Below are positions 4,347 to 26,087 of a DNA stretch of 64,000 nucleotides, in pieces; the first letter of the stretch is position 1, and each line of letters opens with the position of its first letter. This DNA comes from a virus, in IMG/VR virus record IMGVR_UViG_3300040959_000809; one strand, given 5' to 3'. A model generated the notes under the pieces. That model was given only the letters and a program-made list of their open reading frames with translations, was not told where the DNA came from and did not search any database. The translations under genes were made by a program, and so were the position numbers.

Positions 4347-4423
4347 CTCGGTGTAGCGCAGTCTGGTAGCGCATTTGGTTTGGGACCAAAGGGTCGGGAG
4401 TTCGAATCTCTCCACCGAGACCA
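4347..4423 (+). tRNA. tRNA-Pro(UGG)
   Basis: CTCGGTG/CACCGAG acceptor stem, GCGC D-stem, TTTGG-TT(TGG)GA-CCAAA anticodon arm, TTCGAAT T-loop, encoded CCA. Confidence 0.97.
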
Positions 4424-4451: not shown

Positions 4452-4616
4452 ATGACTGAACTTATGACTGATATTGATGTTATTGAATCTGCATTAATCG
4501 CCTTTAACGAAGGTGCCAGCGATGAGAAATATGCGGCACTTTACTCTTTGGAAAAACTTCTGTTGGAAAAGAAGGACATGGTTGCAAAATTTGAAGCAAC
4601 TGCATGTGACTTATAG
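4452..4616 (+). CDS. hypothetical protein (54 aa)
   Basis: Own translation MTELMTDIDVIESALIAFNEGASDEKY...; GGAG SD. Confidence 0.5.
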   Translation: MTELMTDIDVIESALIAFNEGASDEKYAALYSLEKLLLEKKDMVAKFEATACDL

Positions 4617-4669
4617 GTCACATAATGATGTTATATATTGACTTTTGATGTATAACATCATAAATACTA

Positions 4670-4980
4670 TGTAATCGTTGATACGATTCAACGCATGGAC
4701 TGGACCGGGGGGCAATACCCCGCAGCTCCACCATAAACACACTGAGAACGTGCAAGCGTCAGTAAGTCTATAAAGGGTCGCAACCTTGAGCAACAGTGTG
4801 TTTTTGATGGGGCTGAACTAGGATCGACAGGTGTGTAGAGATGAGAGTAGATTACCGTGGTGGCTTACGACATTCGGCCAAACAAACTAAATGCAAACGA
4901 TAATGTTGCACCTTCAGGTTACGCACTAGCGGCATAAGCTGACGGGCTGGTCACTTGCCTCGGAACAGAAAAGTGACACT
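4670..4980 (+). ncRNA. ssrA: two-piece (circularly permuted) tmRNA; outer ends approximate
   Basis: T-arm/acceptor piece ...ccggggggcaataccccgcagctccACCA ends 4733, upstream of the GGGGCTGAA..GGATCGAC 5' end at 4809; tag frame 4893-4937 = ANDNVAPSGYALAA*. Confidence 0.93.
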
Positions 4981-12056: not shown

Positions 12057-12260
12057 ATGAAATACGAAATAGCATTATCACGGACCGGGGTATACGGAAT
12101 TTTGGAGAACACATCTGGTACTTTTATAAATATGTCAAACACCAAAAAAAGTACCATAGAGTCAGTCTGTGATAATTTAAACTGGGGCACTGGGTTTCAA
12201 GGACATACCCCCAATTTTATTGCTAACTTTTCTCCTTTGGTAAGAACAAAAAGAGAATGA
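12057..12260 (+). CDS. hypothetical protein
   Basis: 67-aa ORF abutting gp41 stop; GTGFQGHTPNF. Confidence 0.6.
   Translation: MKYEIALSRTGVYGILENTSGTFINMSNTKKSTIESVCDNLNWGTGFQGHTPNFIANFSPLVRTKRE
12125..12132 (+). promoter_or_regulatory. T4-type late promoter
   Basis: Exact TATAAATA upstream of the 12265-16514 block. Confidence 0.6.
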
Positions 12261-12264
12261 AAAA

Positions 12265-13707
12265 ATGCCTCGTAATTTTAGAAACTATTTAAATGAAGCT
12301 TCTATATTAAAACCTGATTATGTAGAAGGGCATAAATTTGCCTGGAACGGTAAAGGTGTAAAGGAATTTGAAACCGCCGGTTATAAGCGCAATAATATAT
12401 TTACTGTAGTTACTGGTTCAGAAGGTGCTGTACTCATTGGAAGCCAAGATGCTGAGAATGAAAAATACCTACAAGGACCTGACGGAAAGGTATGGCACTT
12501 TAAAGGTGGTCTAAGTTTTAAGGCATCTTCTTTTACCCATGTTAAGGAATCTGGTGGGACACCCAGTGGCGCCGAATGGGAAAACCTTATTGTATTTGCC
12601 TATAATAATCTTAAAGGTACTGCTACAGATGAGGAAACAAAGGAAGTTGCTCTCAAATATTGGGAGCGTTATGGTAATATTTCGGATGAAATTGCTAAAA
12701 ACTTTGATACCAATCTTAAGGCAAAGCAGTTAGTACAAACAGGGCGTGGTTTGGGTAATGTCAAACTTGGAAAGTTTTGGAAAGCAGCTGGTGCGACAAA
12801 CAAGACACCAAAAACTGATATCGCATCATCTAATTTTGTGGAAAAGATTTCACTTAAAAAAGGTGGTGGATCTCAGCTCATTTCAGCAGAGAAAAAAGAA
12901 GCACTTGCAATCGTCAATGCTGCCCTATACGAAATGGGTGGTAACGCACCATTTGCCAAAAAGTTAACTAAGGCTATTGAAGATAAAATGACCAGACTTG
13001 TTACAACTGAGGCGGTCACAACCCTACAGAAACGCTCAATGATGGGTGATAAGGACGCTGGTGTGATTGATTATCAGAAAAAGGATAATGATCATAAGGA
13101 ATTGTCTGCAATGCTCAAGGAGGCCATTAGAGGGGCATCCGAAAGCAATAACTTATTCGCTCGACATATTGTACTAGAGGCAGCCACTGGTAATAATAAA
13201 TTTGGTGGTGCCAATTCAAAGGCAGCCGCAAATGTTTTAGGAAAATTTGATATTAGAACATTTGAGGTGGTTGTACAACCCATTTCATCTATTGATGATC
13301 CTATTATTATAGAGTATGCACAAAAGGTACGGCCATATGTTGCATTTAAAAAAGGTTCAGCGGGTTCTGCTGCTTATTCGGCAATGCGGATGGGTTTATC
13401 CGAAGGCTATACATTCCAAAAACTAGTCACCGAAGAACTTTCAAACATTCAAGGTTTCTATCTTACAGAGGATATTCTAAACGAAGGTCCTATGGGTATG
13501 CTTAGACGTGCTGGCACATTTGCCAAACGTGCAGGTGCCGCAGCTAAAAAAGCATTGGATGCAGCAGTTAAAAAGATCATTTTAAAATTAAAAAAGGTAT
13601 TTGCAGCCATTGCCAAAAAAGGTAAAAACATGATGGCAGCCCTTATGAAGTTCTTAGGGGTTGAGGTAAGTACTGCATCAGGAATTCCAGCAGAGGTAGG
13701 TCTATAA
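12265..13707 (+). CDS. putative capsid-packaged PD-(D/E)xK-fold nuclease-like protein
   Basis: Leader MPRNFRNYLNE; AEWE ... PKTD ... ISLKK restriction-fold-like triad. Confidence 0.6.
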   Translation: MPRNFRNYLNEASILKPDYVEGHKFAWNGKGVKEFETAGYKRNNIFTVVTGSEGAVLIGSQDAENEKYLQGPDGKVWHFKGGLSFKASSFTHVKESGGTPSGAEWENLIVFAYNNLKGTATDEETKEVALKYWERYGNISDEIAKNFDTNLKAKQLVQTGRGLGNVKLGKFWKAAGATNKTPKTDIASSNFVEKISLKKGGGSQLISAEKKEALAIVNAALYEMGGNAPFAKKLTKAIEDKMTRLVTTEAVTTLQKRSMMGDKDAGVIDYQKKDNDHKELSAMLKEAIRGASESNNLFARHIVLEAATGNNKFGGANSKAAANVLGKFDIRTFEVVVQPISSIDDPIIIEYAQKVRPYVAFKKGSAGSAAYSAMRMGLSEGYTFQKLVTEELSNIQGFYLTEDILNEGPMGMLRRAGTFAKRAGAAAKKALDAAVKKIILKLKKVFAAIAKKGKNMMAALMKFLGVEVSTASGIPAEVGL

Positions 13708-14960
13708 TGAAAAGATTTAAAAACTATATTGCAGAGGAGGTCCTTACAGAGGATAAGAATTTGCATATGACGCACCTTGAGGATGCGGTCCTTGATGGGG
13801 GTGTGGTTGGTACTCGGAATGTTATTAACTATCTTCGTGCATTGAGAGACATGTTAGGTGGCAACACCAAGGCACCAGTAAATGTCTCTGTAAAATGGGA
13901 TGGGGCACCGGCAATTTTTGCTGGGAAAGATCCATCCGATGGCAAATTCTTTATTGCCAAAAAAGGTGTTTTTAATAAGAATCCCAAAATATATAAAACA
14001 GAAGCTGAAATTGACAATGATATATCAGGTGACCTTGCGTCAAAGTTTAAGGTTGCTTTAAAAGAGTTTAGTAAGCTCGGCATTGAAGGAGTGGTACAGG
14101 GTGATTTCCTATATACGAATGATGATTTACAAACGACGGCTATTGATGGAGAATCGTATATTACTTTCCATCCTAATACGATTGTTTACGCGGTACCAAC
14201 AAAAAGCAAACTTGCAAAAACAATTTCAGGATCCTCGATCGGCGTGGTCTTCCATACAACATACCGAGGAGATTCATTTGAAACAATGTCAGCAAGTTTT
14301 GGAAAGGAGATTGTACCTTCTCTCAAAAAAGTCAAATCGGTCTGGGCGGTAGATGCAGTATTTGAAGATAAGTCGGGCAATGCCACATTTACAGCTGCAG
14401 AGACAAAAGCATTAAATTCTATTCTAACCAAGGTAGGCACACTGTTCAGAACAATTAAAAAGGAAACCCTAAACGGTCTTTCAAAGGCAAATAATGAGGA
14501 ACTTAATACACGCGTAAATGTATATGTAAATCAAAAGGTCCGAGCTGGAGAACGTATTGGAAACCCTAAACAGTTTGTGGCTGGTCTCACAAAATACATC
14601 AATGACTATTACGGCAAAGAGGCAGATAAAAAGAAAACCCAGCGCGGTAAAGACACACAGACCGCAAAGCGTGACTCGGCTCTAGCCTATTTTGCAAACA
14701 ATAATAAAAAAGAAATAGAACGCTTATTTGAAATGTATAACCTATTAGTTGATGCTAAACTTATGGTTATTTCAAAATTAAACCATGTCGATGGTCTACA
14801 AACATTTCTTAAAACCAATAAAGGTTTTGAGGTTACTGGACAGGAAGGCTTTGTCGCCATTGATCATATGGGTAAAAATTCACTTAAACTTGTAGATAGA
14901 CTACAATTTAGTAAGGCGAACTTTAGTACAGAATATATTAAAGGCTGGGAGAAAAAGTAA
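13707..14960 (+). CDS. putative capsid-packaged RNA-ligase-like nucleotidyltransferase
   Basis: Leader MKRFKNYIAE; KWDG (motif I), QGDFL (III), EGFV (IV), KLVD (V). Confidence 0.65.
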   Translation: MKRFKNYIAEEVLTEDKNLHMTHLEDAVLDGGVVGTRNVINYLRALRDMLGGNTKAPVNVSVKWDGAPAIFAGKDPSDGKFFIAKKGVFNKNPKIYKTEAEIDNDISGDLASKFKVALKEFSKLGIEGVVQGDFLYTNDDLQTTAIDGESYITFHPNTIVYAVPTKSKLAKTISGSSIGVVFHTTYRGDSFETMSASFGKEIVPSLKKVKSVWAVDAVFEDKSGNATFTAAETKALNSILTKVGTLFRTIKKETLNGLSKANNEELNTRVNVYVNQKVRAGERIGNPKQFVAGLTKYINDYYGKEADKKKTQRGKDTQTAKRDSALAYFANNNKKEIERLFEMYNLLVDAKLMVISKLNHVDGLQTFLKTNKGFEVTGQEGFVAIDHMGKNSLKLVDRLQFSKANFSTEYIKGWEKK

Positions 14961-15190
14961 TGGCTTGGGTAGCAGTACCAGGATCTAATGGAATTTGGGA
15001 ATATGATAATGCGGCCAGCACAGCTGATGCTGATACATATGATGATGCAAATGGTACTGTTACTGGAGGAATTAGATCATTTACACCTCCGGGCGGTTCT
15101 GCTCAATTCACCTATATCAAGACAAGAAAAGTAGGTGAGACAATCGTTCGCGGAGAACTCAATAAAAACTATTATGACGGCAAAATTTAA
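14960..15190 (+). CDS. hypothetical protein
   Basis: 76-aa coupled ORF. Confidence 0.6.
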   Translation: MAWVAVPGSNGIWEYDNAASTADADTYDDANGTVTGGIRSFTPPGGSAQFTYIKTRKVGETIVRGELNKNYYDGKI

Positions 15191-15206
15191 GAGATAGGTA
15201 AGAGCA

Positions 15207-16514
15207 ATGGCACAATTTAACAAAGATACAGGTGAATTTCTCAATAATAATAAAACACTATATGAAGTTGTTATGGTTGCTGGCCAAGCCGGGCCCTCAA
15301 CATATGTTAATACAGGCAATCTAAACACATCTTCTGATTCTTTTGGCAGAATGAGAGTCTCAGAACCACTTACTTTGTTTGATAGTAGTCATAGATACGC
15401 CGACAATGGACTTTTTTCAGAGAGCATAACAGGAACGGCATCATCAACATTTAACGGTGATGCAGGACTTATTGACTTAGATGTTGGTTCAAGTTCCGGT
15501 GATGAAATTCTCAGAGAAACCAATAAGACATTTGCATATCAGCCCGGCAAAAGTCTATTGATTCTTTCAAGTTTTATGCTTGCTGCAGCAAAAACTAATC
15601 TAAGACAGCGAGTTGGTTATTTTGGTTCTGAAAATGGTATCTTCTTAGAACAAGACGACAGTAATATATTAGTGGTATTGCGAAGTAAAGTAACTGGTAG
15701 TGTAGTTGACACAAAAATTGCAAAGGCAAACTGGAACGTTGACTCGTTAGATGGTACAGGCCCAAGTGGAGTGACTTTAGATTTGACTAAGGTTCAACTT
15801 ATGTGGTTGGACGTTGAGTGGCTTGGTGTTGGTAGTGTGCGTTTTGGTTTTGTGGTCAATGGACAGTTTATTCCATGTCATGTATTCCATCATGCAAATT
15901 TAATTGATTCCACATACATGACAACTGCATCTCTACCATTAAGACAAGAACTTACAAATACTGGTGCAACTTCTGGTGCAAGTCAGGCAAAACAAATTTG
16001 TAGCACTGTTATTAGTGAAGGTGGATATGAACTAAGAGGTAGACAACACGCCATTGGAACTCCAATTACCAGTGCATATCAATTGGCCGATGCCGGAACA
16101 TATTATCCTGTAGTTTCAATTAGACTGAAATCTGCAAGACAAGATGCAATTGTTATTTTGACTGCATTGTCTCTATTGGGGGTTGGTAATGGTGTAAACT
16201 TCTCATGGAAAATTGTTGCAGGCGGAACAGTGACAACAGCTTCTTGGACAAGTGCTGGTTCCGATTCTTCAGTCGAATACACCTTATCTGGAACTGCGCA
16301 TGATGGCGGTGGTAGAGTTCTTGCACAGGGGTATTTGAATTCCTCTAATCAAGGTTCGCCCACAATGGATATTCTAAAAGAGGCACTATTCAAGTTTCAG
16401 TTAGAGAGAAATTCATTTGCTGATGTTATGGAACCACTCTCGTTTTTGGTTGCTCCGGCAACTGATGATGAAGATATTTTTGCCTCGCTGGATTGGGAAG
16501 AGGTTACACGATAA
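15207..16514 (+). CDS. probable virion structural protein (beta-rich)
   Basis: 435 aa, Ser/Thr/Gly-rich; DSFGRMRVS, YQPGKS, WLGVGSVRFG; position in late block. Confidence 0.6.
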   Translation: MAQFNKDTGEFLNNNKTLYEVVMVAGQAGPSTYVNTGNLNTSSDSFGRMRVSEPLTLFDSSHRYADNGLFSESITGTASSTFNGDAGLIDLDVGSSSGDEILRETNKTFAYQPGKSLLILSSFMLAAAKTNLRQRVGYFGSENGIFLEQDDSNILVVLRSKVTGSVVDTKIAKANWNVDSLDGTGPSGVTLDLTKVQLMWLDVEWLGVGSVRFGFVVNGQFIPCHVFHHANLIDSTYMTTASLPLRQELTNTGATSGASQAKQICSTVISEGGYELRGRQHAIGTPITSAYQLADAGTYYPVVSIRLKSARQDAIVILTALSLLGVGNGVNFSWKIVAGGTVTTASWTSAGSDSSVEYTLSGTAHDGGGRVLAQGYLNSSNQGSPTMDILKEALFKFQLERNSFADVMEPLSFLVAPATDDEDIFASLDWEEVTR

Positions 16515-16532
16515 TTTATTATAGGTTATATT

Positions 16533-17246
16533 ATGAAAAATTTAATTTATCAGTATTACAGTAGTCCAGATAAAGATCGAGTGAAAAAAGATAGGCCCGG
16601 TGTATATATAAATGCCGGTAATTATCACGAGTACTCTAAACAATCCATATCAGCATATGCCAAAAAGCATGGTGTTTTATATAAATTTATGGACCACAAA
16701 TTACCTGACGACATCCCTTTATTCTATGGTATTTTTCTACCATTTCTAGAGGGCTGGTGTTGGGATTATGATAATATTTGTTTTATTGATAGTGATATTA
16801 TGGCTACCGTAAATAGTGGAAATGTATTCGACTATGCTGGCAAACAAGGTCTTACATTACATAAAATGGATGCTTCAAAACATCGATTTGATTCCAAGCG
16901 AGCATTTAAATTCTTTAATGAAATTAACGGCTTCTTTAATAGTGGTGTAGTGATCTTTCCAAGATCCGAATATGAAAATTTCATACATTTTGCATCCACA
17001 TTAAAACAAAGAGACTTAAACAGAACCTCTGTCGAGAATAGTCTTGGCGGTTTTGATCAAGGTTTATTAAATACCTGGATAGCAAATCATAAACGCTATA
17101 ACGAATTGCCAAAGCAATATAATTATCATATGGGTAGATATCAAAAGCCCGAAAGATGGTACGATGGCGTGAGCCTAATACACTACCATCGAGAGGACAA
17201 AGCATTAATGGAACCAGAGTTTCAGGATGAGAGAATACTTAAATGA
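16533..17246 (+). CDS. GT-A fold glycosyltransferase (GT8-like)
   Basis: FIDSD DxD motif, FNSGVV, DQGLLN, YNY...IHY. Confidence 0.8.
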   Translation: MKNLIYQYYSSPDKDRVKKDRPGVYINAGNYHEYSKQSISAYAKKHGVLYKFMDHKLPDDIPLFYGIFLPFLEGWCWDYDNICFIDSDIMATVNSGNVFDYAGKQGLTLHKMDASKHRFDSKRAFKFFNEINGFFNSGVVIFPRSEYENFIHFASTLKQRDLNRTSVENSLGGFDQGLLNTWIANHKRYNELPKQYNYHMGRYQKPERWYDGVSLIHYHREDKALMEPEFQDERILK

Positions 17247-17824
17247 TGGGTGATTTAAAATTTACAACTTGTGGGGATTTTATGCAAGAGCAAGATACTT
17301 ATATTGACCAGTATAAAGAATTTTACAATAACGGCGGTTACGAAAATAATGATCCCGTGATGAGAGCAAAAGATGACATTAAAAAGATGCTAAAAAAGTT
17401 CGACTGTAAATCATTATTAGATTATGGATGTGGACATGGACTACAATATTCTCAGCACAAATTAGATCAGTATTGGGATATTAAAAAACTTACGAAATAT
17501 GATCCAGGTGTACAAGAATTTGAAATAAAGCCTACTGGGACATTTGATGCAGTCATTAATACTGATGTTTTAGAGCATATTCCTGAGGATTATGTATATG
17601 ATGTGATTGCAGACATTTTTAGTTATGCTGGTAAGTTTGTATACTTTAGTATTGCCACAGATCTGGCAAAGGCAGTATTACCGAACGGGGAAAACGCTCA
17701 TTGCACATTAAAACCACATTCTGAATGGGTTACCATTATTGATGAAATGCGTGGGGATATTCCTACATTGGTAAAATGTACTGGCCGTAATCGCTCAAAG
17801 ATAGGGAGCACGTTACTGGAATGA
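17243..17824 (+). CDS. class I SAM-dependent methyltransferase
   Basis: LLDYGCGHG, YDP, DVLEHIP, NAH. Confidence 0.85.
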   Translation: MMGDLKFTTCGDFMQEQDTYIDQYKEFYNNGGYENNDPVMRAKDDIKKMLKKFDCKSLLDYGCGHGLQYSQHKLDQYWDIKKLTKYDPGVQEFEIKPTGTFDAVINTDVLEHIPEDYVYDVIADIFSYAGKFVYFSIATDLAKAVLPNGENAHCTLKPHSEWVTIIDEMRGDIPTLVKCTGRNRSKIGSTLLE

Positions 17825-18339
17825 TTAGAAAGGTTATACTCATTGGTAATGGTCCGTCAAGTAAATTTTATTCACAATTAAATCATTTAGATGGCGGAAT
17901 GACAGCTGGGTTTAACCTTACTGAACACAATGTAGATATTATTTTTGTAAGCGATAAAAAAGTTATTAATAAACTTGAAGGCAATCCAAAGGTACATGTA
18001 TTAAAAAAGCCTTTCATGACAAAAAAAGGTGGGCTTAATCTTGCATGGAATACAGGCCATAATGCATATAACTACCTAAGAAAAATGGGTTATACTCATT
18101 TTGAAATGTATGGTTTTGATTTGCTCTTTTCAGACAATTGGAGTTCGTCGACAGATCGAGTATTTAATAAGGATCTGTGGGTTCAACAGGCGATTGAGGT
18201 TGACATTAATAACGAATGGATTCAATACTGGAATGAGATAATTGACACACCTACAATCATTCATGCTCCTGTCGGGGCAAAACTTTATGTAAACTCTAAA
18301 CATGCACAAATAGAACACCATGAAAACTTTAATTATTAG
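17821..18339 (+). CDS. GNGPS-motif protein (sialyltransferase/Maf-like fold)
   Basis: VILIGNGPSS N-terminal motif, MYGFD. Confidence 0.45.
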   Translation: MIRKVILIGNGPSSKFYSQLNHLDGGMTAGFNLTEHNVDIIFVSDKKVINKLEGNPKVHVLKKPFMTKKGGLNLAWNTGHNAYNYLRKMGYTHFEMYGFDLLFSDNWSSSTDRVFNKDLWVQQAIEVDINNEWIQYWNEIIDTPTIIHAPVGAKLYVNSKHAQIEHHENFNY

Positions 18340-18868
18340 TATGCCTAAATCAGGCACATATCTATGTAGTAATTTACTTTTAGAGTTTGGAATCAGACAA
18401 ACCTTACTACATTTAAACACAGGTACCTACCAGCAATATACATCTGATATAAACGATACCAGAAAAAATCCCCAAAAATACACACACCAGTTGAACTTTG
18501 AAAAGTCAATAGAGTTATTTGGTGATAATGAGTTTGCGGTCACCCACGTACCATATAATAAGAAAAGAGCTCAATTGCTGAAGAACACAAAGAAAATACT
18601 TTTGGTGAGAGACGAAAAGGAAATTGTAGAATCATATCAAAGATGGAATGAAAAAACTGATAGACCTATGCCAGCGTTAAATTTAGGTGATATAAAGAGA
18701 TGGGAGCAAGAAACTAATATTTTTAAGCTTTCATTTAATGATATGATAAATAAAAATGTAGAACAGATTGATAGGTTACAGAACTATCTTTTTAATAGTA
18801 TAAAGTTTGATAGTCTGATGTGTATTAAGAATGCAATTGAATTGCCATCAATGACAAAAATGAGGTAA
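18320..18868 (+). CDS. sulfotransferase-like protein
   Basis: SMPKSGTYL PAPS-binding loop, LLVRD. Confidence 0.6.
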   Translation: MKTLIISMPKSGTYLCSNLLLEFGIRQTLLHLNTGTYQQYTSDINDTRKNPQKYTHQLNFEKSIELFGDNEFAVTHVPYNKKRAQLLKNTKKILLVRDEKEIVESYQRWNEKTDRPMPALNLGDIKRWEQETNIFKLSFNDMINKNVEQIDRLQNYLFNSIKFDSLMCIKNAIELPSMTKMR

Positions 18869-18872
18869 TATT

Positions 18873-19544
18873 ATGGTAATATGTGATAAACATAATTTTA
18901 TATTTCTGAGAATTCCGAAGAATGCAAGCTCTAGTCTTGCAGATTTTTTCGTGAGAAACTTTTGTGATCAGAATGATATATGGACAGAGGTAAACGATTG
19001 TGGTATTAGAGACAATAATGTAAGCCCAGAGTTGATTAGAAAATATAGACATCAGTACAGGTTTATCCACCTAATGCTTCAGGAACTAGTGGATAATAAT
19101 GTCGTGACCCCGACTACGTTGGCTGATAAGGAAATCATAAGTGTACTTAGAAACCCACATAGGCGCCAATTATCACTTTATTTCTTTTTAAAGCGAGGAC
19201 AAAGAAAATCGCCTGAGGAATTTAGACATATTTTTAGAGATGGTTATCATGAAACGGATACTTCAAATAGGATTCTCCAAACAGATTATCCTAAATTAAA
19301 AGGTGTTGACAAAGGGACATGGTGGATATATAATAGACTTAATGAACACTTGCAAGAGTTTTGCTCCTCCAAGGGCATGACAGGAAAGTTAGAATTAAAA
19401 CAATATAAAAACGGATATACACCGAAACAACAAGAAATCTTTGAACAGTATTATGACCAAAAAACACTTGATGCTGTTAAAAAATATTATGAAAAGGATT
19501 TTGACAAACTTATGGAATTAGGAACGGGATTGGAACTAGCATGA
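18873..19544 (+). CDS. sulfotransferase family 2 protein
   Basis: FIFLRIPKNASSS, LRNPHRRQLSLY, YYEKDF. Confidence 0.75.
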   Translation: MVICDKHNFIFLRIPKNASSSLADFFVRNFCDQNDIWTEVNDCGIRDNNVSPELIRKYRHQYRFIHLMLQELVDNNVVTPTTLADKEIISVLRNPHRRQLSLYFFLKRGQRKSPEEFRHIFRDGYHETDTSNRILQTDYPKLKGVDKGTWWIYNRLNEHLQEFCSSKGMTGKLELKQYKNGYTPKQQEIFEQYYDQKTLDAVKKYYEKDFDKLMELGTGLELA

Positions 19545-20221
19545 ACGAAATACAAAAAGCTTATATTTTAAGAATTGACACCGATCTATCACGAGAGTAT
19601 GCTCAAATTACCGCTGATTCTTGTGATACAATAGGACTACCTTACGAATATCACGAGGGCTTCTATAACATGGATCCAAATGACGCCTGGAATACCATAG
19701 GCTTGAGTAGACATATCAAGCGTAATAACTGGGTTCCAGCTGCACAACTTTGTACGGCTGGTCATGCAGCTATTTGGAAAAAGATTGCAGACAATAATGA
19801 AACTGCAATTATTCTTGAGCATGATGCTGTAATGCTACACGATCCTCGGAATGTTAAAATTGGTGATAATAGAATTGTATGTCTAGGATACAAGTTAAAG
19901 GATCCAACTAGATATGACCATGAAGCCGCAGGTGGTCCTAGAGGACTTAGACAAATATCTGGCCACGAAGGTGCTCATGCTTATGCCATCTCGGCGGCTA
20001 CCGCTAGGTCGATGCTCAAGGAAATTGAGGAAAATGGTGTAAGGTCAGCGGTTGACAATCTATACTTTCTCATCCAACGTGCAAATTATACAAAGATTCC
20101 TTTGGCTATTATGGACCCAACAGCTGCAATTGGTTGGCTGCGAGACTCTACAATTTGGGAGGAACCAGCAGAAAATAATTATGCCTTTGTAGCATCATTT
20201 GAAAGAAATCTGGTAAATTAA
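19541..20221 (+). CDS. glycosyltransferase family 25-like
   Basis: CTAGHAAIW, ILEHDA, AHAYAIS.. A. Confidence 0.75.
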   Translation: MNEIQKAYILRIDTDLSREYAQITADSCDTIGLPYEYHEGFYNMDPNDAWNTIGLSRHIKRNNWVPAAQLCTAGHAAIWKKIADNNETAIILEHDAVMLHDPRNVKIGDNRIVCLGYKLKDPTRYDHEAAGGPRGLRQISGHEGAHAYAISAATARSMLKEIEENGVRSAVDNLYFLIQRANYTKIPLAIMDPTAAIGWLRDSTIWEEPAENNYAFVASFERNLVN

Positions 20222-20224
20222 ACC

Positions 20225-20884
20225 ATGTCGTTTCTGTTAAAGAATGATGTTATATCATTACACGTACCAAAGACGGGTGGTAAGGCATTTGAGCAGTGGA
20301 TTACATATGGTGCCAGGGTGGTTAAGGAACGAATTGTCAATCAACATTATTCATATTCTGAACTAATAAATGTTCACCCTGAGTATACTGATAACGACTA
20401 TATTATGATTATCAGAAATCCATATGCAAGAATTGTAAGTTGGTACCACCACAGTAGAGATGTGTATACATATAGTATTAATAGACCAGCACAAAAGGAC
20501 AAGAACCATCCACCAGAATCACCTAGGTTTAGCCCATCATTTGAAGATTGGGTACGAAAGGAGGACCTAAGAGATTTTCCAGCATTTACAAAAAACAGAA
20601 CGGCTGGATCTTTTGGAACAATGAAATCATATTTACACCCATCTGGTAGGATGCCAACATATCTATTACACCAGGAAACATTAGCAGATGATCTAAAACC
20701 ATTGAGAGAACTATGGGAAACAGACGCACCATTAACAACTGAAAATAAATCGTCTGTTTCCTTTTCAGGTAATAATAATTGGAAAAATGAGTTTAAATCG
20801 GATTATACAAAGGACTTTATATACGAATACTTCAAGGAAGACTTTGAAACCTTTGGATATGATAGAAAGTTCCCCACCGATTAA
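20225..20884 (+). CDS. sulfotransferase family 2 protein
   Basis: LHVPKTGG, IRNPYARIVSWY, FKEDFETFGY. Confidence 0.8.
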   Translation: MSFLLKNDVISLHVPKTGGKAFEQWITYGARVVKERIVNQHYSYSELINVHPEYTDNDYIMIIRNPYARIVSWYHHSRDVYTYSINRPAQKDKNHPPESPRFSPSFEDWVRKEDLRDFPAFTKNRTAGSFGTMKSYLHPSGRMPTYLLHQETLADDLKPLRELWETDAPLTTENKSSVSFSGNNNWKNEFKSDYTKDFIYEYFKEDFETFGYDRKFPTD

Positions 20885-20890
20885 GTAAGT

Positions 20891-20898
20891 TATAAATA
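20891..20898 (+). promoter_or_regulatory. T4-type late promoter
   Basis: Exact TATAAATA 35 nt before the 20933 start. Confidence 0.8.
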
Positions 20899-20932
20899 TA
20901 TCTATAAAGTAGCATAGGAATCGAGACATATA

Positions 20933-23242
20933 ATGGCCGATAAAAAGAAGAAAAAGCCCCCAGTCAAAAACTTTAAAGAATTTGACCCGGCCCAATTCAT
21001 TGAAACTGAACCAAAATTAACAGAAGCCGTTAAAAAAGACACGGTCGTTATTAGTTTCGGCAGAATGAATCCTATTACAGTAGGACATGAAAAGCTTGTT
21101 GGTAAGGTTTTAAATGTTGCTCAAAGCCAAAAGGCGGATCCTGCTATTTTTCTTTCTCACACAACTGATCCTAAAAAGAACCCTTTAACATATGAGGAAA
21201 AACTATTTTTTGCTCAAAAGGCCTTTGGCAAAGTAATTAAGAAATCACCTGCAAGGACAATTATTGAGGTGGCAAAACAACTACAGAATATGTATAAGAA
21301 TATGACTGTGGTAGTTGGTTCTGACAGAGTAAAGGAATTTGAAACCTTATTAAATAAATACAATGGAAAAGATTATAAATTTAATACTATTAATGTAGTT
21401 TCAGCTGGTGAAAGAGACCCAGACTCGGAAGGTGTTTCCGGCATGAGTGCATCCAAGATGAGATCGGCTGCTGCCGATGATGACTTTAAAAGTTTTAAAC
21501 AAGGTCTTCCTAAAAAATTACAATCAACCGCAAAAAAGATTTTTGATACAACGAGGCAAGGTATGGCATTAGATGAAGAAACTTTAGAAGAAGCAGTTCT
21601 ATCGAGAGCCGCACGACGGAAAAGAGCTCGACTCCTTAGAAGATATAAAGGTAAAATTGCTCTTGCACGCAAAAAGGCAATGCGTAGACGTGCCACATTA
21701 GACACTCTAAAGAAAAGAGCTCGGAAAACTGCACGTACTATGATCAAGGATAAATTGGCAAAGTCCAAAAGATTTGCTGATCTTGATCCTACTGCAAAAA
21801 TTGCTATTGAAAAGAGACTTGAGAAAATGCCATCGGCGCGTCTTGAAAGATTGGCTCGACGGATTCTCCCTTCAATTAAACGTAAGGAAACGGACCGTAT
21901 GCAACAAAGAAAAAAGAATGAGTCCTTAAATATTGATGAACAATTTGAAATGTTTATGGAAGAAAGAACACCGTCAGGTCGTTTTGGAAAGAATACCCAT
22001 GATATCAAGGTAAAGGTACCAGGTAGAATTAATAAAGCTATTAAAAAGGGAAGCCCGGTTTGGGACCAACGTGAGAACAAACCTCACCAGGAAACCAAGA
22101 AACACCTTTCCGATATAATGAAAAAGCATGGTGTAAAACCATCTAAGGCAAAACATTATCATAATGACATGACAGGTCATTATATGATGGCACATCCAAG
22201 TAATGATCCAGCAAAAGTTCATGCCGCGGCAACTGAATTTGAAAAAACAGTAGGTAAGGCGGTTCGTACAGAAGCCAAAGATGGTGATGGTGTCAATATC
22301 GTAAGGGACCGTGAATTTAAGGGTAAACCTATGAAGAAAGAGCCTGGTACAATAGGCATTAAATTCTCTGATATGAGAAAGTCTAAGTGGGCCAAGGACT
22401 CTGATACCAATCCAAAAAGATCCAAAGCTATGGGTGAAGCCACAGATCTTGAGGAAAAGCTAAAAGCCTCCGATGATATGGGCACTTGGATTAAGGATTT
22501 CCAGGATTCTGATGCACCACAGTTTAAAGACAAATCAAAAGAAAAGCGTAGACAAATGGCTATTGCTGCTAAATTGGATGCCGAGGATGATGTTAAAAAG
22601 GAATCGGTTCAAAAGGGAACTCATATTTCAGACGATCCAAAGGCTATGGCTAGAATAGAAAAATTCTTCAAAGGTTTGAAGCATCAGCCCAAAGGCAAAG
22701 ATATGAAAGATATGTTCGGGTTCATGATGAAACAAATGGGCTATAACCCTAAAACCGGCCTTAAAGAATATAATGAAGATGTAGATCTTGATGAAGCAGC
22801 TCATGATCCTAAACATGTAAAAATGGCTATAGGCATTGCATCTGATAAAAGATATAAAGGTGGTGACATGACTGGTGCAGTCAAGTCCATCGAAAAGATC
22901 AAAAAGGGACTATCTGATCATCCACAAGTTTCTGCTGTACTAAGAAGACAGAACGAAGAAACCAAAACGGAATCGTTGGACGAAATGTGGGGAACATATG
23001 TTTCAAAACGACCTCACATGCTATTGGATAAGAACAATAAGGTTAAATTTGACAAGCGCTTTAAAATGTTTAAAAAGCAAAATGAACTTGAAGAAGAATT
23101 TACACTTAATGAAGAAATGGATTTGGTAAATGATCTTGAGAATTCAGTAAATGAGTTTGTAGAATCTAATGAATTCAAGGAAGCAACTGAACCAAAACTT
23201 TCGTTTAAGGATATCCAAAAAAGAATGGGAAAGGCAAAGTAA
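20933..23242 (+). CDS. putative polyprotein: HxGH nucleotidyltransferase (cytidylyltransferase/NadD-like) plus about 7 small basic modules
   Basis: FGRMNPITVGH and MSASKMR motifs; acidic linkers LDEETLEE, NIDE..FMEE, DLEE, DVDLDE, SLDE. Confidence 0.75.
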   Translation: MADKKKKKPPVKNFKEFDPAQFIETEPKLTEAVKKDTVVISFGRMNPITVGHEKLVGKVLNVAQSQKADPAIFLSHTTDPKKNPLTYEEKLFFAQKAFGKVIKKSPARTIIEVAKQLQNMYKNMTVVVGSDRVKEFETLLNKYNGKDYKFNTINVVSAGERDPDSEGVSGMSASKMRSAAADDDFKSFKQGLPKKLQSTAKKIFDTTRQGMALDEETLEEAVLSRAARRKRARLLRRYKGKIALARKKAMRRRATLDTLKKRARKTARTMIKDKLAKSKRFADLDPTAKIAIEKRLEKMPSARLERLARRILPSIKRKETDRMQQRKKNESLNIDEQFEMFMEERTPSGRFGKNTHDIKVKVPGRINKAIKKGSPVWDQRENKPHQETKKHLSDIMKKHGVKPSKAKHYHNDMTGHYMMAHPSNDPAKVHAAATEFEKTVGKAVRTEAKDGDGVNIVRDREFKGKPMKKEPGTIGIKFSDMRKSKWAKDSDTNPKRSKAMGEATDLEEKLKASDDMGTWIKDFQDSDAPQFKDKSKEKRRQMAIAAKLDAEDDVKKESVQKGTHISDDPKAMARIEKFFKGLKHQPKGKDMKDMFGFMMKQMGYNPKTGLKEYNEDVDLDEAAHDPKHVKMAIGIASDKRYKGGDMTGAVKSIEKIKKGLSDHPQVSAVLRRQNEETKTESLDEMWGTYVSKRPHMLLDKNNKVKFDKRFKMFKKQNELEEEFTLNEEMDLVNDLENSVNEFVESNEFKEATEPKLSFKDIQKRMGKAK

Positions 23243-23736
23243 TGAATAGCTTTAAAGATCATCTTGCAGAAAAGAAAAATGCAGAAGATCCGGATATCGG
23301 AGACCGAAAAGGATCACAACCTTCCGAATATCATAAAGGAATTAAGTCTGTTTCCACCAAGGTCGCTCGTGATCAACACTTTAAAAAGTATGCCAAAAAA
23401 GGTGAAGATGGCGAGGCGGACAGTCAAGCAAATTATAAACCTGCACCAGGTGACGCCACTGCTACAACAAAACCTTCAAAGCACACAAAACGCTATAAGG
23501 CTATGTTTGGAGAAGATGCAACAGAAGGCTTAAAGAAAAAGGCCGAGAAAAGCGGTATGCCTCTTGGAGTACTTAGGCAGGTTTACAACCGTGGTGTTGC
23601 TGCATGGAAATCTGGTCATCGCCCTGGCACTACTCCTCAGCAATGGGGCTTTGCAAGAGTTAATAGCTTTGTGACCAAATCAAAAGGGACTTGGGGCAAG
23701 GCAGATAAGGATTTAGCAGCCAAGGTGGGGGGCTAA
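23242..23736 (+). CDS. CTS-leader protein with HRPG..PQQW..ARVNSF domain (DUF5824-like)
   Basis: Leader MNSFKDHLAE; C-terminal VYNRGVAAWKSGHRPGTTPQQWGFARVNSF. Confidence 0.65.
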   Translation: MNSFKDHLAEKKNAEDPDIGDRKGSQPSEYHKGIKSVSTKVARDQHFKKYAKKGEDGEADSQANYKPAPGDATATTKPSKHTKRYKAMFGEDATEGLKKKAEKSGMPLGVLRQVYNRGVAAWKSGHRPGTTPQQWGFARVNSFVTKSKGTWGKADKDLAAKVGG

Positions 23737-23738
23737 AA

Positions 23739-24371
23739 ATGCAAAACTTTAAATCGTTTATTTCTGAAGCCGGTGGTGCTGGTGAGTGGGGAGCAAAGAA
23801 ACTCACAAAGAAATATAAAAAAGACACCCCAGGCGAATCCTCTGATTTAAATGAAAGCGCATTAAAAGCACTTAGGGTTGCGACCAAAGCTCATGCAGGA
23901 CAAACACGTAAAAGTGGTGGCAAGTATATTGAGCACCCAAAAGAGGTTGCTCGATTTGTAAAGCAATTTAAAAAGTCAAATAATCTTTCGGCGTTAGTAC
24001 AGGCAGCCTATCTACACGATACTATTGAAGATACTGATACAACATATGATGATTTGGTTAAACAGTTTGGTGCTCTTGTAGCTGATATGGTTCAGGAATT
24101 AACAACTGATAAAGCTGCCTCTGATGCTATTGGTAAAGGTGAATACATCGCTGGTAAGATGGCTAAAATGTCAAGTTGGTCATTAGTTATTAAACTTGCG
24201 GATAGATTAGCAAATGTACAAGACATTGATACTCGGCCTGCAGATTTCCAAAAGAAATATGCTGCACAGACTGCACTTGCCATTAAACGTCTCCGTAGTG
24301 ATAGGTTCTTGAGCAAAACACATAATAAAATCATCTCGGCAATTGAGAAAAAGATTAAAGAGTATGTTTAA
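23739..24371 (+). CDS. CTS-leader HD hydrolase, SpoT/Mesh1 type
   Basis: Leader MQNFKSFISE; AHAGQTRKSG..YIEHP, AAYLHDTIEDT, V.ELT.DK, IKLADRLAN. Confidence 0.88.
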   Translation: MQNFKSFISEAGGAGEWGAKKLTKKYKKDTPGESSDLNESALKALRVATKAHAGQTRKSGGKYIEHPKEVARFVKQFKKSNNLSALVQAAYLHDTIEDTDTTYDDLVKQFGALVADMVQELTTDKAASDAIGKGEYIAGKMAKMSSWSLVIKLADRLANVQDIDTRPADFQKKYAAQTALAIKRLRSDRFLSKTHNKIISAIEKKIKEYV

Positions 24372-24747
24372 GTTTAAAAAATATGTATCTGAAGGCCTCA
24401 AGCTTAAACTCATTAGAGGTAAAGGCGAAGACGTCTTAAAAATAAAAGATAGTAAAGAGAAGTCTTGGGTTGAAGTGCGTGGAAAACCTAACTTCGAAAC
24501 TAAGTTTGATCCAAAAGATCCTCTACATAAAGCAATTGCAGCTTTAAGAAAATCTGTTAATGTGTCTGAGCTTGTGAATGGAGAGCCTGTAGGCATTAAT
24601 CCAAACCATCCTGACGGTAAAAAAGCTCTGGCAGCAATAAAGAAGTTGATGAATGAAACTAACGGCTTTCAACCAGCAATGATGTTACATGAGCCAACCA
24701 AAAAGAAAATATTGTCTAAACAAAAAAAGAATAGAGAAGAAAAATGA
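24364..24747 (+). CDS. CTS-leader hypothetical protein
   Basis: Start moved to MFKFKKYVSE at 24364, overlapping the previous stop. Confidence 0.7.
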   Translation: MFKFKKYVSEGLKLKLIRGKGEDVLKIKDSKEKSWVEVRGKPNFETKFDPKDPLHKAIAALRKSVNVSELVNGEPVGINPNHPDGKKALAAIKKLMNETNGFQPAMMLHEPTKKKILSKQKKNREEK

Positions 24748-25439
24748 AAAGATTTAAGCATTATATTTCAGAAGGTAATGCTAAAGGTGGTTACCATTAT
24801 GAAGATCAGGTTAATAGTAATCTGAAAAAGCATGGAATGCAGAAAAAGGACCAAAAGAGTGCTGGAGCATCAAAGGATGCACCTGATGGAACAATTCGGT
24901 CCAAGGATGGTAAACATCACAATCTTGAAATTAAACAGAATAAAAATGCTATGTATGGACAAATTGGTATGCACCACGATGGCAAAACATGGAAGGTAAA
25001 GGATAAATCCAAAAAGGATTATCCTGAAACTGCAAAACATATTGAAAAACATGTAGTACCTCATATGAATAAACATATGGGAAAGCCATCCGGTGATTAT
25101 CACAAGGATAAAGAAGTACACGGTAACCATTATATCCCACATAAGGGCACTCAGCCCATCCGTGATCATTATGCAAAAGATAGAAACACACATTATATTC
25201 AGATTGGCAAATCCGGTCTCCACCATATGTCAAAGGATCATGGTAAACTTGGTACTCATGAATTAAACGGAGATACTCGTTTCCGTGTACGTGTTAAATA
25301 CCATGGAACAAATAAAAAGACCAACAAGGTAAGTTATAGCCATACTGTTACGATGGAATTAAAGAACCATAAAGCATCACATATAGATCTGGACCATCAT
25401 TCAGAACATTTAGGTAAAATACACGGCAAACATGAATAG
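24744..25439 (+). CDS. CTS-leader PD-(D/E)xK nuclease-like protein, His/Lys-rich
   Basis: Leader MKRFKHYISE; YE ... APDG ... LEIK triad. Confidence 0.65.
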   Translation: MKRFKHYISEGNAKGGYHYEDQVNSNLKKHGMQKKDQKSAGASKDAPDGTIRSKDGKHHNLEIKQNKNAMYGQIGMHHDGKTWKVKDKSKKDYPETAKHIEKHVVPHMNKHMGKPSGDYHKDKEVHGNHYIPHKGTQPIRDHYAKDRNTHYIQIGKSGLHHMSKDHGKLGTHELNGDTRFRVRVKYHGTNKKTNKVSYSHTVTMELKNHKASHIDLDHHSEHLGKIHGKHE

Positions 25440-25716
25440 TTTTAAAACATATATTCTTGAAGCAAAGACACCCAAATGGAAAAAGGCAGGGCCGGATGGT
25501 GAGCAGGAAATTACCTTTCCTACAGGTAGAAGGTTTAAAATAGAAAAACAACTTGATCAAAATGAGCGACATCAACGTGGCGAATATAAGGTCATGGAAT
25601 GGGATTCCAAAACTCGGGATTGGGAATGGCATGAAACATATAGTCCAAAATGGTATGCTAAAGAGAAGGTAATGGAACTAGGCAAGTATGACCAAAAGGG
25701 AAAAAAGGTAGGATGA
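25432..25716 (+). CDS. CTS-leader hypothetical protein
   Basis: Leader MNSFKTYILE. Confidence 0.7.
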   Translation: MNSFKTYILEAKTPKWKKAGPDGEQEITFPTGRRFKIEKQLDQNERHQRGEYKVMEWDSKTRDWEWHETYSPKWYAKEKVMELGKYDQKGKKVG

Positions 25717-26087
25717 AAAAGTTTAAACAACATTTACATGAATCTAACTTTGGTCTATATGAAGGAACCACAGTACCACTTGATCAGCCGATGATTGAAA
25801 TTGATGAGGAACAGGAACCAGAACTTAATTCACCAAAACGTGGCGGCAAGAAAAAGTACATTGTATATGTCCGGGATCCTAATACAAAGAATATAAAAAA
25901 GATCCAATTCGGAGACGACACGGGATTGTCTGCAAAGATTAATGACCCAGGTGCTCGGAAGAATTTTGCAGCCAGACATAATTGTGCTGATAAAACAGAT
26001 AAAACCAAGGCTGGCTATTGGGCATGTAGATTACCAAAATATGCCAAACAATTAGGTCTTAAAGGCGGAGGTGATTTCTTTTGGTAG
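25713..26087 (+). CDS. CTS-leader basic protein
   Basis: Leader MKKFKQHLHE; KNFAARHNC...KAGYWAC domain. Confidence 0.7.
   Translation: MKKFKQHLHESNFGLYEGTTVPLDQPMIEIDEEQEPELNSPKRGGKKKYIVYVRDPNTKNIKKIQFGDDTGLSAKINDPGARKNFAARHNCADKTDKTKAGYWACRLPKYAKQLGLKGGGDFFW

Follow-up and report, generated by a model that had tools for sequence, protein, structure and literature searches.

A predicted ligase-fold nucleotidyltransferase with a putative capsid-targeting leader: DUF6267 in an apparently T4-like marine phage

IMG/VR virus record IMGVR_UViG_3300040959_000809 was analyzed as a stretch of 64,000 nucleotides, called the window below, which reads as part of the genome of a marine T4-like myovirus. 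The window encodes a gp32-like single-strand-binding protein, UvsX, the gp41 helicase and NrdA, and all of its long open reading frames (ORFs) lie on the + strand. The closest phage relative, Kyanoviridae phage C48C1, is recognizable at the protein level only (52% identity), and when 24 kb of the window were compared with 50,697 phage genomes by megablast, no match was returned. The gene considered here, ORF 13707-14960 (+), encodes a 417-residue protein of the DUF6267 family and is translationally coupled on both sides through TAATG overlaps. An earlier note, made from the letters of the sequence, had described the product as a capsid-packaged RNA-ligase-like nucleotidyltransferase. The gene and its elements are:

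13707..14960, + strand: DUF6267 protein, a predicted ligase-fold nucleotidyltransferase with an N-terminal leader (PF19782 match, structure model, structural matches)
13707..13736, + strand: leader MKRFKNYIAE, a putative capsid targeting sequence with a predicted protease cut after Glu10 (comparison with T4; residues 1-13 have a predicted local distance difference test score, pLDDT, below 50)
13887..13910, + strand: motif I, SVKWDGAP, with the candidate nucleotidyl acceptor Lys63 (codon 13893-13895); K63, D65, G66 and P68 invariant
14094..14111, + strand: motif III-like VQGDFL; D133 invariant, Q131 and G132 at least 90% conserved, on a beta strand spanning residues 129-137
14394..14780, + strand: helical bundle, residues ~230-358, inserted after motif IIIa and before motif IV (seen in the modeled secondary structure)
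14841..14858, + strand: motif IV, QEGFVA; E380 and G381 invariant
14883..14900, + strand: motif V-like LKLVDR; K394 invariant, R398 at least 90% conserved

The protein belongs to its family strongly and over its full length: the match to Pfam DUF6267 (PF19782; E 4.9e-108, 362 bits against a cut-off of 27) covers residues 18-408 and profile positions 1-374 of 376. The protein also falls into PHROG 455, and both families are annotated as of unknown function. DUF6267 is a phage-only family. It matches 456 phage records, most of them from cyanomyoviruses and a few from pelagiphages or other marine phages, and, at E <= 1e-3, 2617 representative clusters (50% identity); it is absent from 14 of 14 control cellular genomes and from T4. 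Few gene families without annotation are as widespread in marine T4-like phages. No paper on DUF6267 was found in the literature searched, and an ESM Atlas search with the protein returned unnamed viral clusters only.

The five strings quoted in the earlier note, a leader and four ligase-superfamily motifs, are all present (residues 1-10, 61-68, 130-135, 379-384 and 393-398), and they are not chance matches: the leader occurs far above expectation, as detailed below, and the key motif residues do not vary. In an alignment of 59 DUF6267 homologues sharing 34-53% identity, K63, D65, G66, D133, E380, G381 and K394 are invariant, and they stay so when seven more distant sequences are added, including the short orthologues of Syn9 (gp183) and S-SM1 (SSM1_189), which are 30% identical. 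Motifs I, III, IV and V follow one another in the superfamily order, with D133, E380-G381 and K394 each on a predicted beta strand, a correspondence that rests on pattern matching and not on an alignment to a known ligase. An N-terminal H-x-x-H-x-E-D element is likewise invariant in DUF6267.

An AlphaFold2 model built from the 59-sequence alignment is confident (pLDDT 92.1; predicted template modelling score 0.88). In it every motif lies on a beta strand, leader residues 1-13 are disordered, and motifs IIIa and IV are separated by an inserted helical bundle of ~130 residues, of which the orthologues of Syn9 and S-SM1 have a shorter form. Motif V is not followed by any domain; the protein stops ~20 residues later, at residue 417, after a short helix. 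The model was compared with known structures by VIA, a search independent of Foldseek, run as a wide search and then as a second look. The wide search was topped by NgrRnl (5cot; Z 8.9 over 185 residues, 3.7 A), followed by TbREL1 (1xdn; Z 8.3), Trl1 (6n0t; 7.8) and T4 Rnl2 (1s68/2hvq; 7.8), and lower down by archaeal Rnl3 (Z 7.2), T4 Rnl1 (9do4; 6.5) and many DNA ligases. In the second look, rows 1-41 are ligases without exception (Z 9.0 to 5.7), with NgrRnl at Z 9.0 and DNA ligases, covered by their adenylation domain alone, at 5.7-7.1; an NAD+ ligase and a capping enzyme lie near Z 5.

Since the hits are uniformly ligases and the motif residues are invariant, the assignment of a ligase-type nucleotidyltransferase fold, though drawn from a model, can be regarded as reasonably secure, and adenosine monophosphate (AMP) is likely to be accepted by Lys63, in the KWDG motif. 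The description of the protein as a ligase-like nucleotidyltransferase is therefore borne out by a confident model, in whose neighborhood RNA ligases come first, and by its invariant motif residues. The comparison with Rnl1 and Rnl2, which the earlier note had suggested, gave a structural match to Rnl2 at Z 7.8 and a weaker one to Rnl1 (Z 6.5); no sequence signature of either is present. Two other assignments were rejected. An mRNA capping enzyme is disfavored by the score of human guanylyltransferase (Z 4.9), under that of all ligases. A purely structural internal protein was set aside in favor of an enzyme because the motif residues are invariant across a very large family.

The beginning of the protein may point to its destination. 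Genes that share its leader, or neighbor it, occupy a larger part of the window:

12125..12132, + strand: TATAAATA, a box resembling a T4 late promoter, upstream of the genes that run from 12265 to 13707 to 14960
12265..13707, + strand: upstream gene, 480 residues, isoelectric point (pI) 9.5, with a leader-like start MPRNFRNYLNE and a stop that overlaps the DUF6267 start (TAATG); no known domain
20933..23242, + strand: 'cytidyltransferase', the usual partner, 769 residues, with an N-terminal HxGH nucleotidyltransferase domain resembling phosphopantetheine adenylyltransferase (PPAT) and nicotinamide mononucleotide adenylyltransferase (NMNAT)
23242..23736, + strand: DUF5824 protein with the leader MNSFKDHLAE, third member of the triad
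23739..26087, + strand: five more leader-bearing basic proteins, namely an HD_4 hydrolase (23739) and the products of genes at 24364, 24744, 25432 and 25713

In T4, mutagenesis of the leader has tied residues 4 and 7 to capsid targeting and residues 8 and 10 to processing (PMC9026906). MKRFKNYIAE fits these functional positions, with aromatic residues F4 and Y7, I8 and E10, and T4 ipII and ipIII start exactly MKTYQEFIAE. The leader stands on seven more window genes, those at 23242, 23739, 24364, 24744, 25432 and 25713 and, as a variant longer by one residue, the gene at 12265; the cytidyltransferase at 20933 has a looser, internal version. All leader proteins of the window are basic (pI 9.2-10.0), as is the mature DUF6267 protein (residues 11-417; pI 9.3), and two leaderless neighbors are acidic (pI 4.8-4.9). 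The window and 80 related viral loci together hold 1997 ORFs, of which 151 begin with the leader (1.7 expected), all 151 on the coding strand; they fall into at least nine unrelated protein families. The leader or a variant of it is found in 81 of 81 close DUF6267 orthologues, and a gp21-type prohead protease (Peptidase_S77) in all five large related phage records.

Virion proteomics of a more distant relative bears on the same point. The virion proteome of S-SM1 lists SSM1_188, 190, 191, 192, 195 and 197 (PMC3037559, Table S8). SSM1_190 (25 counts) starts MKKFSAFLNEA and SSM1_192 starts MLSFKELQE, and SSM1_189, a leaderless DUF6267 orthologue, is not among the listed proteins. The pattern, in which leader-bearing neighbors are in the virion and the leaderless DUF6267 protein is not, is consistent with packaging via the leader. 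On this evidence the DUF6267 protein of the window is probably packaged in the capsid, and with a T4-type head-loading tag at its N-terminus it would probably be injected with the DNA.

Boxes similar to TATAAATA precede the other two leader-gene runs as well, at 20891 and 26345; their overall enrichment is weak (11 found, 6.5 expected), and a scan for sigma-70 promoters and terminators showed no enrichment. The stretch 12265-26087 (+) holds about nine basic proteins with a leader like the T4 capsid targeting sequence, several of them with no known domain, an apparent capsid-cargo 'regulon' of enzymes in a marine phage and a new aspect of this locus. The protein encoded at 12265-13707 has an amphipathic, Lys/Ala-rich C-terminus, and several related loci have a homologue of it upstream of DUF6267. 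Three family members (P0004, P0038 and P0115) look like polyproteins, with a leader-like peptide, e.g., GKTFTDFITEQK, between a kinase or other N-terminal domain and DUF6267; such an internal peptide could be a cleavage site for the prohead protease.

The reading modestly favored by the balance of this evidence is that of a divergent lysine nucleotidyltransferase, in its modeled fold closest to the nick-sealing/tRNA-type RNA ligases, that would be loaded into the capsid and injected. The late operon would yield a DUF6267 precursor with a ten-residue T4-type capsid targeting sequence; the leader would bind the scaffolding core of the prohead and be cut off after Ile8-Ala9-Glu10 by a gp21-type prohead protease. 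The basic mature enzyme (11-417) would remain in the head with the DNA and enter the next cell alongside it, where, with a nucleotide donor, it would form an enzyme-AMP intermediate and hand the AMP on to RNA or DNA at a 5'-phosphate end, so that the end could be sealed or marked ahead of all phage gene expression. We infer the packaging, the cleavage and injection, the catalysis and the substrate.

Several results weigh against this reading. On the side of the fold, Foldseek found no match in the PDB at E <= 0.001, archaeal DNA ligases appearing only at probability 0.3-0.6; searches of PDB chains, by phmmer and by hmmsearch with the 59-member profile, returned noise only and no ligase; and hhalign of the family profile with T4 Rnl2, as a single sequence or as a profile that was shallow (15 members, >=55% identical), gave no match (probability 0.1). 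The top Z of ~9 barely exceeds the range that VIA calls 'middling', and the DUF6267 protein has neither an OB (oligonucleotide/oligosaccharide-binding) domain nor any other known nucleic-acid-binding or accessory domain. On the side of packaging, the gp21 protease is shown in relatives only, because the window lacks a head module; the available virion proteomes cover leaderless DUF6267 orthologues only, and these were undetected there. The link between leader and virion is imperfect, since no leader is obvious in the virion protein SSM1_191. The DUF6267 orthologues of Syn9, S-SM1 and S-PM2 are leaderless, and packaging is therefore not intrinsic to DUF6267 function. As for the literature, a recent paper on a cyanomyovirus virion proteome does not mention the family, and nothing relevant was found on capsid targeting sequences together with cyanophages or with RNA ligases. 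The label 'capsid-packaged' given by the earlier note finds its support, as a probable property, in the T4 positions 4, 7, 8 and 10, the basic leader-bearing neighbors, the gp21 protease of relatives and the S-SM1 virion neighbors.

A Pfam scan at E up to 0.1 found DUF6267 alone, with no match to RNA_lig_T4_1 (Rnl1) or PF09414 (Rnl2). With no sequence link to known ligases and no OB or known accessory domain, DUF6267 is treated here as a new branch of the superfamily, and a very divergent one, outside Rnl1, Rnl2, Rnl5 and the DNA ligases. Ligase-fold enzymes and T4-type capsid targeting are both of kinds already known; what is new is the assignment of a large DUF to the ligase fold, and an unusual architecture with a helical insert, the HxxHxED element and no OB domain. 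With this placement DUF6267 acquires an activity that can be tested and a candidate for the catalytic lysine.

The genes that accompany DUF6267 are as conserved a part of the picture as its leader. The cytidyltransferase is directly downstream of DUF6267 in 64 of the 80 related loci and is followed by DUF5824 in 48; the three domains are also found fused in single proteins (P0006, P0105, P0111 and P0145), and PHROG 455 itself spans DUF6267 and the cytidyltransferase. The N-domain of the latter carries the motifs FGRxNPxTxGH and GMSASKMR, and its model matches phosphopantetheine and nicotinic acid/nicotinamide mononucleotide (NaMN/NMN) adenylyltransferases (Foldseek E 2e-5, probability 1.00). 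By these motifs and the PPAT/NMNAT-type model, the module appears to combine a lysine nucleotidyltransferase with a producer of cofactors linked to adenosine diphosphate (ADP), and this pairing is a new aspect. Because the cytidyltransferase and DUF5824 are the usual downstream neighbors of DUF6267, are sometimes fused to it and share its leader, DUF6267 most likely acts together with both. The conserved pairing points to chemistry beyond the known RNA repair systems. A kinase, by comparison, was rejected as a regular partner: a polynucleotide kinase (PNK)/zeta-like P-loop kinase is fused to DUF6267 in one representative (P0004) and adjacent in five of the 80 loci, and the window has no polynucleotide kinase.

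In the window the triad is split by ~6 kb of inserted genes between DUF6267 and the cytidyltransferase, coding for a virion protein, a methyltransferase, sulfotransferases and a glycosyltransferase. Part of this insert, 16533-20884 (+), holds the methyltransferase, three or four sulfotransferases and the GT25 glycosyltransferase, a cluster that suggests sulfated glycan modification by the phage. Farther upstream lie a tRNA-Pro (4347-4423) and a permuted two-piece tmRNA (4607-4980, +; Rfam tmRNA_permuted 111.6 bits, alpha_tmRNA 103.6 bits) whose tag, according to ARAGORN, is ANDNVAPSGYALAA. The alphaproteobacterial type of this tag, which may be a hint to the host or to a donor, conflicts with the protein hits, most of which are to cyanophages.

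Three further observations concern the family elsewhere. A prokaryotic assembly (G001; 5.1 Mb, 98% complete) shares 35% of the sampled 31-mers of the window and has a DUF6267 gene on contig C88 (8792-9964; L017); no gp21 protease was found in it, and it probably carries contigs of a closely related phage, only part of which is present. In S-PM2 (NC_006820, 103037-104222; L008/L010/L013), the DUF6267 match is split across two reading frames, its second part falling within the gene annotated as cytidyltransferase (p142), which could reflect a frameshift, a fusion or an annotation problem. The match in P-SSM2 is likewise in two pieces.

Other functions have to be weighed against that of the proposed injected ligase-fold enzyme. 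T4 Pnk and Rnl1 counter PrrC, and the DUF6267 protein could be an injected analogue of Rnl1 that rejoins tRNAs after their cleavage by anticodon nucleases of the host or by other ribotoxins, as the earlier note had proposed. RNA ligases do rank above DNA ligases in both structural searches, some family members have the PNK/zeta-like kinase fused or adjacent, and a leader-bearing HD-domain hydrolase is encoded in the window at 23739. Yet the lead of RNA over DNA ligases is just 1-2 Z units, the HD protein belongs to the HD_4 (RelA/SpoT-like) type, which is not a known end-healing one, a kinase is missing from the window, and the conserved partner resembles PPAT/NMNAT and not an end-healing enzyme. 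With no match to the Rnl1 family or its tRNA-specific C-domain, and T4 Rnl1 itself at a Z of only 6.5, Rnl1-like repair of ribotoxin-cut tRNA finds no support in these data and is judged unlikely. A different role would be that of a DNA ligase. Cyanomyoviruses, which make up most of the 456 matching records, have no gp30 homologue, and a review has raised the possibility of unrecognized distant homologues (PMC2984593); DUF6267 might be this 'missing' DNA ligase of cyanomyoviruses and their relatives, sealing replication nicks or repairing the injected genome. DNA ligases typically have a KxDG motif, the replication genes uvsX, gp41 and nrdA surround the gene, and the leaderless orthologues would act in the cytoplasm. 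However, the protein ends ~20 residues after motif V with no OB domain, DNA ligases score lower (Z 5.7-7.1) than RNA ligases (7.2-9.0), and confinement to the capsid would be of little benefit to a replicative ligase; this role is a reasonable alternative but judged improbable. Even so, the assignment of DUF6267 bears on an old question about cyanomyoviruses and their lack of a recognizable DNA ligase.

The partner could also be taken as the key to function, in which case DUF6267 would not be a polynucleotide ligase: working with the fused or adjacent PPAT/NMNAT-like enzyme, it would take part in the chemistry of small molecules or cofactors, such as the use or regeneration of nicotinamide adenine dinucleotide (NAD+) or another ADP-linked donor, or in protein nucleotidylation, as an injected counter-defense. 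The conserved order of the triad and its fusions would fit, as would the PPAT/NaMNAT fold of the partner with its HxGH and ISxxxxR-like motifs, the detection of the partner family in the S-SM1 virion and the lack of a recognizable nucleic-acid-binding domain in the DUF6267 protein. But all structural neighbors with Z >5.5 are polynucleotide ligases, no known member of the fold acts on small molecules only, and the link to NAD+ is speculation; the probability of this alternative is low. A proposal that keeps the injected ligase-fold enzyme and extends it to its neighbors is doubtful. The three enzymes (ligase-fold, PPAT/NMNAT-like and DUF5824), sometimes as one polyprotein, would be loaded into the capsid by way of a T4-type leader and injected as a ready-made pathway, which might regenerate or use an ADP-linked cofactor, e.g., NAD+, to repair or modify nucleic acid at entry. 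If true, the module would be a new pre-packaged counter-defense, distinct from T4 Rnl1/Pnk repair and from the known NAD+ reconstitution pathways.

Set beside known systems, the favored reading of an injected, ligase-fold lysine nucleotidyltransferase combines familiar parts in an unfamiliar way. The best structural matches are NgrRnl (Naegleria gruberi Rnl5; 5cot/5cou), T. brucei REL1 and T4 Rnl2 (Z 9.0, 8.3 and 7.8, respectively, over 175-195 residues). DUF6267 shares with these nick-sealing RNA ligases the order of motifs I, III, IV and V and an invariant lysine, but no sequence or profile similarity was found; it has neither the C-terminal domain of Rnl2 nor the N-terminal domain of NgrRnl and has the internal helical insert (~130 residues) instead. 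Bacterial Pnkp/Hen1, in which kinase, phosphatase and ligase are joined, is a weak match (4drf; Z 5.2): its combination of a kinase with a ligase fold recurs in the P0004 fusion, yet this architecture is rare (five of 80 loci), and no phosphoesterase domain or Hen1 partner was seen with DUF6267. T4 Rnl1 and Pnk likewise include a phage ligase-fold enzyme with a potential role in counter-defense, and some DUF6267 genes are fused or next to a PNK-like kinase; unlike the proposed DUF6267 cargo, the T4 enzymes are not known to be packaged in the capsid, and in the window the kinase is missing and the partner is PPAT/NMNAT-like.

For the route into the cell, the counterparts are the T4 proteins IPI, IPII, IPIII and Alt, which are targeted to the capsid, processed by gp21 and injected. 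T4 has no DUF6267, and its internal proteins are small inhibitors, whereas the cargo here would consist of enzymes (ligase-fold, adenylyltransferase and HD hydrolase); beyond the S-SM1 homologues in the virion proteome, we infer its packaging and cleavage. T4 capsid targeting has been studied mainly in coliphages and appears to be active, with enzyme cargo, in ocean phages, which in that case would bring a pre-made kit of enzymes into the cell at injection. The likeness to T4 is close in other respects: the leader is likewise ten residues long, with an aromatic residue at positions 4 and 7, Ile or Leu at position 8 and Glu at position 10, the proteins are basic in their mature form, a gp21-type protease is encoded by relatives, and one leader is borne by many unrelated proteins.

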